DNA of 64,000 nt, taken from the sequence record PZ212788.1; one strand, written 5' to 3'. Shown one piece after another: positions 10,523 to 18,581 of this stretch. Below the pieces are notes generated by a model. The model searched no databases and was not told the origin of the DNA. It saw nothing but the letters and a program-made list of their open reading frames with translations. Origin of the DNA: a phage. The stretch's first letter is position 1; each line of letters starts with the position of its first letter. Made by a program: the position numbers and the translations under genes.

Positions 10523-10873
10523 ATGAAAGATGGGGATAAGCTGCTATATCTTAAAGTCCCCCTTGAAATACTGTCTATGTCAAAAGTTTTGAATGACACA
10601 ACTGGAGAGGTTGTTGTTCTTGACTTGTATGACAAGATCGTATACTGCTACCTGCACAACTGGTATAAGCTTGGAGGAAATTCACGCTTCACACCCAGCA
10701 CAAGGAAAATTGCAGCAGATGTTGGGATAAAGAAAACAAAAGCAGCAGCGTGCGTTAAAACTTTAGAGTGTGCAGGGGTGGTTGAAACATCCACACAAGG
10801 GAGAGGTAAAAGATGCACATTTTCCAAAGTTTTGCCACCAGAAGAAGTTATTCGGATGTCAACAACTGGTTAG
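10523..10873 (+). CDS. winged-helix/HTH DNA-binding protein (candidate iteron-binding protein)
   Basis: HTH-like segment STRKIAADVGIKKTKAAACVKTLECAGVVE; gene directly precedes iteron array. Confidence 0.4.
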   Translation: MKDGDKLLYLKVPLEILSMSKVLNDTTGEVVVLDLYDKIVYCYLHNWYKLGGNSRFTPSTRKIAADVGIKKTKAAACVKTLECAGVVETSTQGRGKRCTFSKVLPPEEVIRMSTTG

Positions 10874-10947
10874 ACCAGTAAAAACTTAAATATCTGTACT
10901 ATAAGGATTCGTATGTTTTATGTTCGCTCTAGAATAGAGGTCAGTAA

Positions 10948-11030
10948 CTGTCCGTGATACGGACACTACTGTCCGTCACGCGGACACATCTGCCCGTAAT
11001 ACGGACACTAACTGTCCGTGATACGGACAC
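10948..11030. repeat. iteron array: four direct copies of 19-bp palindromic site CTGTCCGTGATACGGACAC at 21-22 bp spacing
   Basis: Copies at 10948-10966, 10969-10987, 10990-11008, 11012-11030; copies 1 and 4 identical; each has TGTCCG/CGGACA arms around a 5-nt spacer. Confidence 0.8.
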
Positions 11031-11534
11031 ATAAAGAATATAACTAAAATAACTAAATAATAAAAAATAAAAGATCTAGTACTTATGGTACTAAAGTACA
11101 TATACTTAACTTATGTAGAATATACTAGATCCTAAGTACCATGTTTTAAATTTATTACTTACTATAGGTAGTGTCGGCCCTTCATTGGCACTCGCCTACG
11201 AGGGGCGAGATGCCGGGCCTCCATAGTGCACACAATAACAGAAGTGCATACATGCAGGTCTGTTAACATGTGTGGGAGCGAAGCGATAGCGCAGGCCAAA
11301 GGCCGAGCACTAATGTGGACCACCGACGAAAGCTTGCCAGCGCCGTAAGGAGTCGGTTGAGAGCCTCCCGCGCGAGTTTGGATAAAGTTTATGTGTGGAA
11401 ACTGACAAGAAGGCCCCTAAATCGCTCCACAGCTATATAAACTATACCAAGTAAGGCAATCGCACCAGTTTGATAGAAAAGCTCGTTACAAAGCGATACA
11501 GTGAGTTTTTCTATAACTTGAAGAGGAGTCTGCT

Positions 11535-12113
11535 ATGAGTTCACGCAAAGATGCCAGTGAAAAGATTGCAAAACGTTATCAGAATGAAGAACAGATGGAG
11601 AAAACTTTCAAGTGGAAGCCAGGTTTCCAGCGTAATCATTCTAACGCTCGTGATCGTAAGCATCCTGATAAGTGGCTAACACCGCCAAATGATGGCATGC
11701 AGGTTGGTGATGAGAAGGAGCTATCACCTGGAAAAGATGGCAACTACATTCGCACTAAGGACGCTAGTCCAAAGGATGACAGCTATCTTGTAGATAAGGT
11801 TCTTAATGGTATTGATGTAGATGTTGACACTACACGGAACTTTTTTCTTGGGTGGTATCGCACAGGTTTTTTCGACATCAAGGCCATTCGTCGTGTTTGT
11901 GATATTAAAAAGTCTGCATATGATGACGACTCGTTACATCGCACACTGAGACAATATTCAGAAAGATATGGTCATCCGGTTATCACTCTTGACGATGTTA
12001 ACGAAGTGATGTATCATGCAGAGGTTGTTGCAGGCAGATTTGGTGATGCATATCTTGATATCCTTTCTGCAAACGATGAGGTAATGTTGAATAAGATTTA
12101 CTACGAACGTTGA
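11535..12113 (+). CDS. hypothetical protein
   Basis: ORF with GAGGAG RBS. Confidence 0.45.
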   Translation: MSSRKDASEKIAKRYQNEEQMEKTFKWKPGFQRNHSNARDRKHPDKWLTPPNDGMQVGDEKELSPGKDGNYIRTKDASPKDDSYLVDKVLNGIDVDVDTTRNFFLGWYRTGFFDIKAIRRVCDIKKSAYDDDSLHRTLRQYSERYGHPVITLDDVNEVMYHAEVVAGRFGDAYLDILSANDEVMLNKIYYER

Positions 12114-12123
12114 GGAGAGCTTA

Positions 12124-12312
12124 ATGAACAATCCGGTAGCAAAGAATTGTAATAAGTTCAACAAGTCTGCAATTCACACTGACAGGAAAAAGAGCTGGTC
12201 ACCGGACATTGACGAGGAGCTTGAGAATTACTTTGAAGATCTGGTTACCAATGCAGGTGAGGTTGCGATTAAAGAATACGCAGACAGGAGGGATAAGGCC
12301 GGAATCTGTTGA
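12124..12312 (+). CDS. hypothetical small protein
   Basis: ORF with GAGGAG RBS. Confidence 0.35.
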   Translation: MNNPVAKNCNKFNKSAIHTDRKKSWSPDIDEELENYFEDLVTNAGEVAIKEYADRRDKAGIC

Positions 12313-12337
12313 CAAAAATAATGTTACCTGATAAGAT
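12309..12337 (+). promoter_or_regulatory. sigma70-like promoter TTGACA-N17-TAAGAT
   Basis: Consensus -35, 17-nt spacer. Confidence 0.45.
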
Positions 12338-12388
12338 CTGCAATATGATGTGATACAATTTTAACTTACGAGGTCTACAGGTAATGCT

Positions 12389-12631
12389 ATGTTTAAGGTT
12401 AAGCTCGTTTTCCGTTCCATGAATGAGGATTATTTAGAAGATGAAGGTGAATTTCGTGCACTAGATGATGCAATAGATTTTGCCAACGACTTAGCTTGTA
12501 TGAATACGGGTTATGGGTTATGCTGTTGGGATGGTGGTGTTCAGATCGGTGATAGCAAGATCTTCTACTTCTACCCTGAGCCTGATAACAAACAAATTAA
12601 GTATGTTTTATTTATTTGTGCTTTACAATGA
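12389..12631 (+). CDS. hypothetical protein
   Basis: ORF downstream of promoter 12309-12337. Confidence 0.4.
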   Translation: MFKVKLVFRSMNEDYLEDEGEFRALDDAIDFANDLACMNTGYGLCCWDGGVQIGDSKIFYFYPEPDNKQIKYVLFICALQ

Positions 12632-12919
12632 GGTTGTTTTCGTGTATCATGATGAATATCCAATTTAAAGATGAGTTTGATGGCTTTATCTCCGGATGCT
12701 TTGAAACAGGGTTCGGAGAAGGCTGAGTTCCCCTTAGAGGGCTTGATAGTGCACCACACTTAAAATGGTAGGGGCAGCCAGCACATGACGATGTGACCCC
12801 AGCCAACCTGTAATAAGGTCGAGCCAGAGCGCGGTAATGGGTATCTGGTAACCCACTTGTTGGGTCTTGCTGGTCCAGGACGCTGGGCAAGTCGCAGGGA
12901 ATACCACCCTGCGGCGAAC

Positions 12920-12948
12920 TTGACAATCAGTATTTGCCGTGATAAAAT
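12920..12948 (+). promoter_or_regulatory. sigma70-like promoter TTGACA-N17-TAAAAT with extended -10 (TGa)
   Basis: Consensus -35, 17-nt spacer, TG at -15/-14. Confidence 0.5.
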
Positions 12949-12965
12949 CCACCTATCACGTGATA
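12938..12965. promoter_or_regulatory. operator-like palindrome: CGTGATA half-site plus perfect 12-bp palindrome TATCACGTGATA
   Basis: Overlaps the -10 and extends toward the RBS of CDS 12977; GTGATA core also present in the iterons. Confidence 0.45.
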
Positions 12966-12976
12966 ATGGAGGAAAC

Positions 12977-13315
12977 ATGGCGGATACAACTAAAAAGCGT
13001 CGCCGTAGAGGCAGACCTCTGAAAGAGGAGTCCAACGCCATTCAGCTAGAGAAGAACATTCTTGATATGAAGGAATCTTTTATAGCGATGGTTCCAGAAG
13101 CTCACAAAGTTTTAAGAGAGCTGATGTTGGACCCGAAAACCAAACAAAATATTCGTCAAAGCATTGCAGAGTATGTTCTTGATAAGGCAGACCGAATGCA
13201 GGAAGAATATGATGAGATGTTTGGTGAAGAGGAAGAGGTGGTAGTGGAAGAGGCTGAAAAACCAGCACCTTTTATGCCATTTACCACAGAAATACAGCCT
13301 GTTGGCAATAGTTAA
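12977..13315 (+). CDS. hypothetical protein with basic N-terminus (KKRRRRGRP) and acidic C-terminus
   Basis: GGAGG RBS 4 nt upstream of ATG 12977; ORF-track Met at 12857 lies upstream of promoter. Confidence 0.4.
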   Translation: MADTTKKRRRRGRPLKEESNAIQLEKNILDMKESFIAMVPEAHKVLRELMLDPKTKQNIRQSIAEYVLDKADRMQEEYDEMFGEEEEVVVEEAEKPAPFMPFTTEIQPVGNS

Positions 13316-13324
13316 AATATTTTC

Positions 13325-13353
13325 TTGACAAACTTTGCCTAACAGTGTAATAT
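13325..13353 (+). promoter_or_regulatory. sigma70-like promoter TTGACA-N17-TAATAT upstream of tRNA cluster
   Basis: Consensus -35 and near-consensus -10 about 60 nt before first tRNA. Confidence 0.55.
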
Positions 13354-13411
13354 TATAAACATGGTCTCCCACCTTTTCTGGCGGCTCAGGTGTAAAAGAA
13401 AGCCACCCAGT

Positions 13412-13486
13412 GCCCTGTTAGCTTAGTGGATAAAGCAGCGGCCTTCTAAGCCGTTGACACTGGTTCGAGTCCAGTACGGGGTGCCA
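13412..13486 (+). tRNA. tRNA-Arg (anticodon TCT)
   Basis: Hand-folded cloverleaf: acceptor GCCCTGT/ACGGGGT, D arm GCTT/AAGC, anticodon stem GCGGC/GCCGT with loop CTTCTAA, T arm ACTGG-TTCGAGT-CCAGT, discriminator G, encoded CCA. Confidence 0.8.
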
Positions 13487-13490
13487 AATT

Positions 13491-13577
13491 GGGGAGTTAT
13501 CCCGTAGGGGTAGCGGTGTAGACTGTAAATCTATTGTCATTGCGACTCGGGTGGTTCGACTCCACCACTCCCCACCA
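13491..13577 (+). tRNA. tRNA-Tyr (anticodon GTA), type II
   Basis: Acceptor GGGGAGT/ACTCCCC, anticodon loop CTGTAAA, long variable arm, T arm GGTGG-TTCGACT-CCACC, CCA encoded. Confidence 0.8.
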
Positions 13578-13692
13578 AATTTATAGTTTTAAATGCATAA
13601 ATCATACAGATAATGGCATTGATATTTATCGTCGTTTATACTAGTCACTAACTGCTCGAAAATCAGTGTCATTATCAGTATTGTTTATAAAT

Positions 13693-13778
13693 GAGGGTAG
13701 GGAGCAATGGTGCTCAAGCGGTCTTGAAAACCGTCCCGTTGAGGATGACTTGATGATGGTTCGATTCCATTACCCTCA
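13693..13778 (+). tRNA. tRNA-Ser (anticodon TGA), type II
   Basis: Acceptor GAGGGTA/TACCCTC, anticodon stem GCGGT/ACCGT with loop CTTGAAA, long variable arm, T arm ATGG-TTCGATT-CCAT. Confidence 0.75.
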
Positions 13779-13879
13779 GCCATATTGTTGACCTTGTAAT
13801 TAATCGAAAGCCGGAAGCAGAACCGGATTATCAAATGTTACAGTCGTCATCGCCGACTAGCAACATGGTCAACATACTG

Positions 13880-13976
13880 AGCTAGGTAAGCCCTTTGGCA
13901 AGGGCGAGGATTTTTAATCCTGAAAATAGACGAGGTAGTCGTTGAATACATAGGTGGTTCGATTCCATCACCTAGC
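13880..13976 (+). tRNA. atypical tRNA-like element (97 nt), anticodon hairpin presenting TTT (Lys-like), with about 30-nt variable-region insertion
   Basis: Acceptor GCTAGGT/ACCTAGC, D arm GCCC-TTTGGCAA-GGGC, hairpin AGGA-TTTTTAA-TCCT, T arm GGTGG-TTCGATT-CCATC; too long for canonical tRNA. Confidence 0.4.
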
Positions 13977-13985
13977 ACCTTTTTT

Positions 13986-14061
13986 GCTGATGTAGCACAA
14001 TTGGTAGTGCAATTGATTTGTAATCAATAGGTTGCAGGTTCAAGTCCTGCCATCAGCACCA
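13986..14061 (+). tRNA. tRNA-Thr (anticodon TGT)
   Basis: Acceptor GCTGATG/CATCAGC, D arm GCAC-AATTGGTA-GTGC, anticodon stem ATTGA/TCAAT with loop TTTGTAA, T arm GCAGG-TTCAAGT-CCTGC, CCA encoded. Confidence 0.8.
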
Positions 14062-14062
14062 T

Positions 14063-14137
14063 GGCCCTGTAGCTGGAAGGTTCAAGCAAGCGACTCATAA
14101 TCGCCAGACGGTGGTTCAATTCCACCCAGGGCCACCA
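14063..14137 (+). tRNA. tRNA-Met or tRNA-Ile2 (anticodon CAT)
   Basis: Acceptor GGCCCTG/CAGGGCC, anticodon loop CTCATAA, T arm GTGG-TTCAATT-CCAC, CCA encoded. Confidence 0.7.
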
Positions 14138-14148
14138 AATAATAAATA

Positions 14149-14225
14149 CTCCGCGTAGCTCAGCTTGGTAGAGCGCCTGATTTGGGATCAGGAGGTCGAG
14201 TGTTCGAATCACTCCGTGGAGACCA
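14149..14225 (+). tRNA. tRNA-Pro (anticodon TGG)
   Basis: Acceptor CTCCGCG/CGTGGAG, D arm GCTC-AGCTTGGTA-GAGC, anticodon stem CCTGA/TCAGG with loop TTTGGGA, T arm GAGTG-TTCGAAT-CACTC, CCA encoded. Confidence 0.8.
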
Positions 14226-14271
14226 CTTTCAGTTATACTTTAAACATATACAAACAAAAGGAACCTTTAAA

Positions 14272-14541
14272 ATGTATACACTTAAAATTGTAGAGCGTGT
14301 AAATCCAACCCATACCGTAGATTTTCGTGACGATTTCAATCCTCTGGCTGTAAATCTTCGAGAGTCATATCATGAACTCAGCTGCGATGCAGTGGTGGTC
14401 TTTTTTGAAGACAACTCTGAAGGGGCGGTAGCTTGTGTTGTTGATAGTGAGCAGAAGTTTTATATTTACAGAGATGTAGATGCATACTTGATGAATGAAA
14501 ATGCAGTTACTGTTAGAATCATCCACCGAGTGCCTCGATAA
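14272..14541 (+). CDS. hypothetical protein
   Basis: ATG 14272 preceded by AAAAGGAA; ORF-track start at 14182 would overlap tRNA-Pro. Confidence 0.4.
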   Translation: MYTLKIVERVNPTHTVDFRDDFNPLAVNLRESYHELSCDAVVVFFEDNSEGAVACVVDSEQKFYIYRDVDAYLMNENAVTVRIIHRVPR

Positions 14542-15045: not shown

Positions 15046-15329
15046 GAGTTGCTACACTGTTTATTGCGTGCTTGTTATTATGTGGGTGTGCAACCAGTGT
15101 TGAGAAAGAATACAAGATTGACCCTCCAGATGTAGGAAGGTTGATTGTTAAACCCCCAGAAGGTGCCATGAAACCACCTGCTAAAGCTATGCCTTTGAAG
15201 AAAGGTGCGCCAGATGCAGTGAACTCTGGCATTATGAGGGATAATAATTTGTCTTGTAGCAATGATAGAGCTAAATTGATCATTTTGCAAGACTATATTA
15301 GAACACTGTTTCCAAAGGAGAGAGGTTAA
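15042..15329 (+). CDS. o-spanin (Rz1-like outer-membrane lipoprotein)
   Basis: Signal peptide with lipobox LLCGCA, proline-rich mature part, AGGAGG RBS. Confidence 0.55.
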   Translation: MRVATLFIACLLLCGCATSVEKEYKIDPPDVGRLIVKPPEGAMKPPAKAMPLKKGAPDAVNSGIMRDNNLSCSNDRAKLIILQDYIRTLFPKERG

Positions 15330-18552: not shown

Positions 18553-18581
18553 TTGCAAAACCTCCTTTGGCGTGATAAAAT
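18553..18581 (+). promoter_or_regulatory. candidate promoter TTGCAA-N17-TAAAAT (extended -10 TGa)
   Basis: Shares GTGATAAAAT core with promoter at 12920. Confidence 0.4.

Follow-up and report, generated by a model that had tools for sequence, protein, structure and literature searches.

We identified a conserved structured RNA in a GC-rich non-coding island within a 64,000-nucleotide (nt) stretch of phage DNA (sequence record PZ212788.1; hereafter the window), which comes from a Vequintavirus, an rV5-like Escherichia coli myophage. The island, which constitutes the full rV5-type non-coding RNA region, occupies positions 12727-12919 on the + strand, from the stop of a small open reading frame (ORF) to the base before the promoter P74. 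Its conserved core, at 12796-12843, is a three-way junction that recurs in unrelated virulent phages, among them T4-like phages, siphophages and other lineages, and this motif is apparently an undescribed, widely distributed phage RNA family. The RNA element is kept almost base for base across phage families while neighboring proteins stand at ~35% identity, and it travels with tRNA genes; such conservation and tRNA linkage point to strong selection on a function connected with translation or with host defence directed at tRNAs.

A structured non-coding RNA in the GC-rich island

A sequence-only reading of the window had described 12632-12920 as GC-rich, non-coding structured sequence covered only by mutually overlapping ORFs. 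GC content is 0.55 across 12700-12899, compared with about 0.40-0.44 around it. The description holds for 12727-12919 but not for 12632-12726, which has a GC content of 0.37-0.42 and contains the end of an ORF and a small ORF: the ORF listed at 12389-12631 (+ strand) reaches into the region with its end, and a small TTG-start ORF at 12616-12726 (+ strand) overlaps that end. The five overlapping ORFs named in that reading are all present, with exact coordinates. However, every ORF spanning the island is broken, because relatives that are >97% identical carry insertions and deletions of -1, +2, +3 and -10 nt within 12727-12865. These comprise a 3-nt insertion at 12727, changes of -1 and +2 nt at ~12843-12846, and a net 10-nt deletion at ~12856-12865. 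The net 10-nt deletion also takes out the TTG start of a 152-amino-acid extended ORF, which is called a "putative regulatory protein" in one GenBank record. The rV5 type record (DQ832317.1) leaves a 287-nt gap empty here, and the island is unannotated in most relatives too. In a protein-coding test, the island did not preserve a reading frame among its relatives. Judged by these comparisons, 12727-12919 is non-coding; the frame-breaking changes, the conserved RNA motif and the covarying helices together bear out the earlier description of structured, non-coding sequence. This corrects the annotation of spurious small ORFs and of the 152-amino-acid "regulatory protein" extension in Vequintavirus records.

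The motif occurs as a single copy in the window, with a covariance-model match at 12794-12849 on the + strand (70.4 bits and E 6e-21 with model R1, the next match in the window scoring 10 bits; 66.4 bits with model R2). We derived its architecture from the alignment and consensus fold, with sequences read directly. Helix P1 is formed by CCCA (12798-12801) and UGGG (12838-12841). Its 5' strand is followed by the junction strand J1/2, GCCA (12802-12805), and by the P2 hairpin ACCU-GUAAUA-AGGU (12806-12819), which has an invariant stem and a loop of the form G-U-R-R-N-A. The segment 12820-12837 begins with J2/3, C-G-A, and continues with a short P3 and a further junction strand. P3 consists of the pairs G12823-C12832 and C12824-G12831 around a loop at 12825-12830, with an A12822.G12833 mismatch alongside, and after this mismatch the junction strand G-UAA (12834-12837) leads into the 3' strand of P1. 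All of these elements lie on the + strand.

The core is flanked by further hairpins on the same strand. A 5' module consists of a hairpin, CCC-UUAGA-GGG, at 12731-12741 and of CUUGAUAGUGC, which comes after it (to 12752). A second rV5-like clade, which is uncultured (clade B, see below), has this module as well, in two copies. The P0 hairpin CACAU-GACG-AUGUG (12782-12795) stands immediately 5' of the junction. On the 3' side, the minimum-free-energy fold gives a clade-specific module of three hairpins at 12852-12912: CCCA-CUUGU-UGGG (12852-12864), CUUGC...GCAAG around CCAG-GACG-CUGG (12866-12891), and GCAGGG-AAUACCA-CCCUGC (12894-12912). Substitutions among relatives are confined to the loops of this module, and in the divergent Vequintavirus locus L130 CUCAG-GACG-CUGAG replaces UCCAG-GACG-CUGGG, a compensatory change. 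An extra CCAGA/UCUGG helix that appeared in the single-sequence fold was rejected, as the insertions and deletions of relatives lie there.

Side-by-side reading of the lineages gave a family consensus: (i) P1 of 3-5 base pairs (bp), free to vary in sequence; (ii) J1/2 of 0-4 nt, often NCA; (iii) P2, ACCU-GURRNA-AGGU, abutting C-N-A; (iv) P3 of 2-3 bp with a variable loop of 3-7 nt; and (v) G-G-UAA, then the 3' strand of P1. In each lineage read, a variable P0 hairpin stands just upstream of the junction. With a covariance model that comprised P1, P2 and a revised P3, we recovered 79 copies in 80 sources. In the 79-copy model alignment, 95.5% of cells are paired versus 86.9% in shuffles, and the covariation score is 0.260 versus 0.112 in shuffles; none of 500 shuffles reached either value, and slid partners scored 0.015-0.054. 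Six of the ten pairs have changed on both sides, among them every one of the four pairs of P1 and one pair of P3. P1 appears by lineage as CCCG/UGGG, CCCU/AGGG, CUGGU/GCCAG, ACUCA/UGAGU and ACACU/GGUGU, and the second P3 pair is C:G (n=60), U:A (n=11) or G:C (n=2), with a loop that varies in sequence and length. P2 is invariant in 74 of 75 distinct sequences, the remaining one having a single A-U to G-C swap, and is uninformative for covariation because it does not vary. The P0 hairpin of clade B, CUACG-GACG-CGUAG, differs from that of the window on both sides of four of its five pairs, with an identical loop. G.U pairs fit the fold on the motif's strand only, and the fold is therefore specific to that strand. 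These comparisons establish the fold and its strand.

Two structural proposals were discarded. A first P3 register, CGAGC/GYGCG (5 bp with an A.G mismatch), was dropped because divergent members show C5 covarying with G3', though the old register can still form in canonical members. A reading of CUGUAA as a tRNA-Tyr anticodon loop was likewise rejected, because the covarying structure gives a 6-nt loop and not a 7-nt one.

Distribution of the motif and its linkage to tRNA genes

A sensitive blastn search returned 682 records. The 119 Vequintaviruses among them matched over the whole query, and the other 563 records were T4-like phages that matched 12799-12843 only, at 89-95% identity. The motif lies directly after denV and before vs.8 in T4-likes, and in the T4 reference it is located inside the annotated N-terminus of vs.8 (locus L108, NC_000866 64253-64912; a related locus is L002, 2465-2610). 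We observed that conservation of the T4-like vs.8 protein starts at MRTFLTG, the annotated T4 start swallowing the motif, which corrects the start of T4 vs.8. A 16-codon upstream ORF (MDNSCATEWPKLIEKK) is present in T4-likes, its end overlapping the MRTFLTG start via ATGA. An apparent conserved hairpin between the motif and vs.8 in these phages was rejected as the short coding upstream ORF or N-terminus. The motif is ~90% identical as DNA across T4-likes, versus only 34-45% identity for vs.8 proteins; between the rV5 clades, the two motif-flanking proteins are 66-72% identical and the RNA core is nearly invariant. These identities indicate that selection acts on the RNA and not on its neighbors.

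By scanning viral and metagenome contigs with exact and degenerate patterns, we extended the family to >100 loci. These scans placed the motif in clade B (L025, L027, L032, L039, L085 and L090), for which the phage collection contains no close isolate; in three T4-like subtypes; in ~46-kb siphophages of Klebsiella, Salmonella and E. coli; in a 360-kb jumbo-phage contig (L112); and in ~25 further viral-contig loci. We also observed tandem copies in L042 (5089-5243), L044 (9028-9183), L103 (370-525) and L122 (824-965). The second copy has diverged in L042, L044 and L103; in L042 its P2 reads GCCU/AGGC and its P3 is different.

A host origin of the motif was rejected: blastn against complete E. 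coli genomes did not find it, and a pattern scan of 185,579 species genomes (one per bacterial species) gave only 27 chance-like matches, in GC-rich coding DNA without P2. The Rfam/Infernal scan proposed in the sequence-only reading matched no family to the island. At gathering thresholds, Rfam 15 returned only five tRNA matches in the whole window, and at E<=10 over 10800-13450 it returned only a sub-threshold rli43 match at 10956-11253 and a cut-off tRNA. ARAGORN and RF00005 found no tRNA or tmRNA in 12632-12976, the nearest tRNA beginning at 13412. The motif did not turn up in the literature, whether searched by sequence string or by topic; a 10,006-entry catalogue of anonymous candidate viral RNAs (PMC10690425) could contain it.

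Without exception, the tRNA genes of motif loci share the strand of the motif, typically at a distance of 45-720 nt (about 17 lineages); none is on the opposite strand. This establishes the linkage of the family to tRNA genes. The motif stands upstream of the tRNA array in both rV5 clades and most ~46-kb siphophages, inside the array in L087, L112, L121, L123, L128 and L129, and downstream of all detected tRNAs in L036, L040, L083, L107, L116, L118 and L133. Given this varied position, the motif behaves as one more gene of the array and not as a leader. Transcription signals close to the motif differ between lineages. In clade B (L025), a TTGACA-17-TATACT promoter lies directly 5' of the RNA. 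In the window a hairpin takes the place of that promoter, so transcription of the RNA must start upstream, for example at a promoter at 12309. An intrinsic terminator directly follows the motif in L040. In siphophages a ~20-bp stem, one of an array of such stems, encloses the motif, a layout that looks like RNase III-type processing.

The siphophage loci have a peculiar organization in their own right. A non-coding gap of ~1 kb between opposite-strand tail genes is filled with an array of ~20-bp hairpins and tRNAs (L038 8600-9000, - strand; also L034, L036, L043, L046, L083 and L141 1421-2441). Each hairpin encloses a different insert, and one of the inserts is the motif. The hairpin arms hold UGCUCUUU, which we take to be boxA-like.

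Small stable RNAs with an unexplained role have a precedent in the tRNA operon of T4 (PMC3014915). These species 1 and 2 RNAs (rnaC and rnaD) are small structured phage RNAs that are transcribed together with tRNA genes and processed out of the tRNA operon, and the motif resembles them in keeping company with tRNAs on the same strand. However, we rejected identity with rnaC or rnaD on reading their sequences: both lack the ACCU-GUAAnA-AGGU hairpin and the GGUAA junction, the T4 copy of the motif lies ~6 kb away from them between denV and vs.8, and the motif is spread over far more phage lineages. According to the same review, T4 has no characterised riboswitch or trans-acting RNA (PMC3014915).

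Larger phage-borne RNAs invite a second comparison. GOLLD and ROOL are structured, of unexplained function, and often found beside tRNA genes. They differ from the motif in measuring 500-800 nt and oligomerising, compared with ~55 nt for the motif core and ~190 nt for the island, and both are Rfam families, neither of which matches the window. We also noted a resemblance of the motif to 16S rRNA. GUAACAAGGU, found in many family members (in the window GUAAUAAGGU at 12810-12819), is, as we assume, equal to 16S positions 1497-1506, and GCGGUAAU (12831-12838) presumably equals positions 527-534 in the 530 loop; we take both to be classic regions for universal primers. Chance probably explains the resemblance, as the secondary structure differs.

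Proposed role and alternative readings

On balance, we favor a processed, trans-acting small structured RNA that binds a conserved partner. The processing, the action in trans and the nature of the partner are what we infer beyond the structure, and the RNA would work as follows. It would be made within long early/tRNA transcripts, starting in the window at the promoter at 12309, and in the sister clade its own promoter would drive it. The host RNases responsible for tRNA operon maturation would then excise it, the agent in siphophages being RNase III acting on the enclosing stem. Once excised, the RNA would act in trans as a small stable RNA and use its invariant P2 hairpin and junction to contact a conserved partner. 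The likeliest candidates for this partner are host components, protein or RNA, of the translation or tRNA machinery, or else a nuclease of tRNA-directed defence. A separate, ordinary feature is the promoter with the palindrome at 12920-12965, which serves the next gene. More speculatively, and with clearly less confidence, the motif may represent an unrecognised class of phage small RNA, including a third stable RNA of T4 inside the vs.8 start, that is found in many tRNA-bearing virulent phages and binds a conserved host translation or tRNA component or a tRNA-directed defence nuclease. If so, it would be part of a phage "tRNA island" toolkit that keeps translation running during infection. 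The motif is open to direct tests in tractable phages, namely T4 and the rV5-like phages of the BASEL collection.

Several observations weigh against a processed RNA that acts in trans. The T4-like motif, ~6 kb away from the tRNA cluster, invariably stands just upstream of vs.8, a placement that better fits a role in cis. Members were found by exact search patterns that fixed P2 and part of P3, making their invariance partly an artefact; the 5' strand of P2 was left free in the second pattern scan and was still conserved. The alignment used for covariation was fitted to the model. Finally, the core is thermodynamically unremarkable (z of -0.7 to +1.1), and the whole-island fold has a z of -1.55. 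The weak stability of the core suggests that the fold is held by tertiary contacts or by a partner.

We weighed the trans-acting reading against several alternatives. The foremost of these, which we still consider unlikely, is an element that acts in cis on transcription or processing: by modifying RNA polymerase (processive antitermination) or marking processing sites, the nascent RNA would protect long, untranslated tRNA arrays from termination by Rho. HK022 put and the lambda nut and rrn boxA-boxB leaders are likewise hairpin elements that follow strong early promoters ahead of long units, the position that the motif has in the rV5-like clades. In both of these clades and most 46-kb siphophages no terminator separates the motif from the downstream tRNAs; the clade B motif begins directly after its consensus promoter, P2 and P3 form two abutting hairpins, and the terminator after the motif in L040 is the layout expected for a read-through element. 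However, the motif is not consistently upstream of tRNA arrays, lying downstream of all tRNAs seen in 7 loci and inside the array in 6; it precedes a translated gene in T4-likes, and boxA was not seen here. A riboswitch or translational operator in a 5' untranslated region, controlling vs.8 in T4-likes and the gene at 12977-13315 in the window, has in its favor the strict synteny of the motif with vs.8 across T4-likes and with the rV5 ORF74 homologue in both rV5 clades, and the T4-like P1 3' strand ends ~15 nt before the short, vs.8-coupled upstream ORF. High conservation and marginal stability are typical of aptamer cores, and three-way-junction aptamers such as the purine class share the size, the P1-closed junction and the conserved junction nucleotides. 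We nevertheless regard this as improbable: a full promoter separates the motif from the window gene, whose own transcript thus lacks it; in other lineages the motif is followed not by an ORF but by a tRNA, a terminator or a long hairpin; downstream genes are unrelated between lineages; and the motif is not consistently in a 5' untranslated region. In addition, the motif lacks the J2/3 strand of purine-class-type aptamers, its P2 stem is sequence-invariant, and no Rfam riboswitch family matches. A new self-cleaving ribozyme that cuts polycistronic tRNA-array transcripts would account for the small junction, invariant junction nucleotides and covarying stems, as well as for the location in non-coding multi-RNA phage transcripts, where other small ribozymes occur. 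We give this idea even less credence, as a search at E<=10 matched none of the known ribozyme families, a sequence-invariant P2 stem is unusual for ribozymes, and the cores lack the hammerhead CUGAnGA/GAAA signature (judged by eye only). Lowest on our scale stands a function of the DNA itself, for example as a signal for single-strand initiation or as a binding site for a protein. The ~40 bp are nearly invariant, stems included, and an origin-like module lies 1.7 kb upstream, but the tolerance of G.U pairs in helices on this strand only, the constant agreement of orientation with transcription and tRNA genes, the promoter directly upstream in clade B and the terminator directly downstream in L040 make a DNA-level role hardly credible.

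The sequence-only reading had offered another alternative, in which the island is a structured spacer and the functional unit is a promoter with a palindromic operator, bound by one regulator that also acts at iterons and at a promoter at 18553. We consider this quite unlikely, placing it below antitermination and above a riboswitch. The promoter itself, TTGACA-N17-TAAAAT with a TG extended -10 (12920-12948, + strand), is borne out by its consensus. It has 11 of 12 consensus matches, is the best-scoring promoter in 10800-14300 and drives the gene at 12977-13315, and it is already annotated as P74 in DQ832317.1, one of the rV5 sigma-70 early promoters (P75, P74 and P(tRNA)), some of which carry operator-like dyads. 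Like them, it combines a consensus -35 with a 17-nt spacer and an extended -10, and clade B keeps it as TTGACA-17-TAAACT. The perfect palindrome TATCACGTGATA (12954-12965) lies around the predicted transcription start, just before the Shine-Dalgarno sequence GGAGG (12968-12972, + strand). It is exact, unique in the window and invariant within Vequintavirus, including the divergent L130, and a third CGTGATA stands 9 bp upstream, inverted. On the other hand, its dyad symmetry is not beyond chance (12 perfect 12-bp palindromes in the window versus ~15.6 expected). Close relatives differ in the first, upstream CGTGATA half-site (CTATGATA, CTGTGATA), and clade B keeps only the left half of the palindrome (TATCA) while retaining the promoter, the Shine-Dalgarno sequence and the gene. 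CGTGATA occurs 10 times in the window versus 4.3 expected (sites include 10953, 11017, 12938, 12954 on the - strand, 12959 and 18571), and as 3 of 100 shuffles reach 10, the enrichment is mild only. GTGATA is indeed present in the iterons and at the 18553 promoter. However, the copies at 12938 and 18571 are the extended -10 element, "cGTGaTAAAAT", which other strong promoters in the window spell TGGTAAAAT, TGTTAAAAT or TGATAAGAT, and the iteron copies, found in two of the four iterons, fall within a 5-nt spacer that is not conserved, the conserved part being TGTCCG/CGGACA. A single regulator of the GTGATA sites is thus not supported. An operator function of TATCACGTGATA is possible, and candidate binders are the products of 12977-13315, with a conserved basic KKRRRRGRP N-terminus that could let the protein regulate its own gene, and of 10523-10873, an initiator-like protein with a winged helix-turn-helix. 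The promoter and palindrome add little that is new.

Neighboring genes and further observations

In total, 119 phage records match 12300-13400 at >=95% identity, nearly all of them E. coli Vequintavirus genomes of ~136 kb. Genes in the neighborhood are on the + strand throughout, and gene calls include an RNA ligase, a polynucleotide kinase and a phosphoesterase. The gene downstream of P74, at 12977-13315 (+ strand), is the rV5 ORF74 homologue (PHROG 3330), with a clade B counterpart at L025 279-626. The AT-hook-like character of its N-terminus and its acidic C-terminus are kept in both rV5-like clades. Comparison of its product with PDB structures gave insignificant matches only, a weak one being the small terminase subunit (E 0.06). 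The large terminase gene begins at 15329 (+ strand).

Further upstream, the winged-helix "replication initiation" protein gene (PHROG 12838; 10523-10873, + strand) is followed by the four iterons, TGTCCG-N5-CGGACA (~10943-11031), and by an AT-rich stretch with a GC content of ~0.31 (11040-11160). Because they stand beside the initiator gene and the AT-rich stretch, the iterons look like part of an origin and not like operators, and 10523-11160 as a whole has the appearance of an origin-like module. A first GC-rich island directly follows this module (11160-11450; GC 0.555, fold z -2.3). It is unannotated in most relatives, and its blastn matches fall only within Vequintavirus. We rejected it as a second copy of the motif, as the covariance model finds no copy there.

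We made several minor observations in the same region. Clade B retains the ...KDEFDGF stretch of the small ORF at 12616-12726, with a stop directly after it and then the RNA's own promoter; this ORF may be a real micro-ORF or merely conserved DNA. The seven-tRNA gene cluster (13412-14225, + strand) starts 575 nt downstream of the motif. One tRNA-like gene within it, at 13881-13979, is unusually long (97-99 nt), is assigned a 4-base anticodon ("???") by ARAGORN and scores only 35.5 bits with Rfam; across relatives it is annotated as tRNA-Lys or tRNA-Stop(tta). Finally, 18 GenBank records that bear the name "Campylobacter phage" match E. coli Vequintavirus at 97-99% identity over 12300-13400; these records are probably mislabelled or contaminant assemblies.

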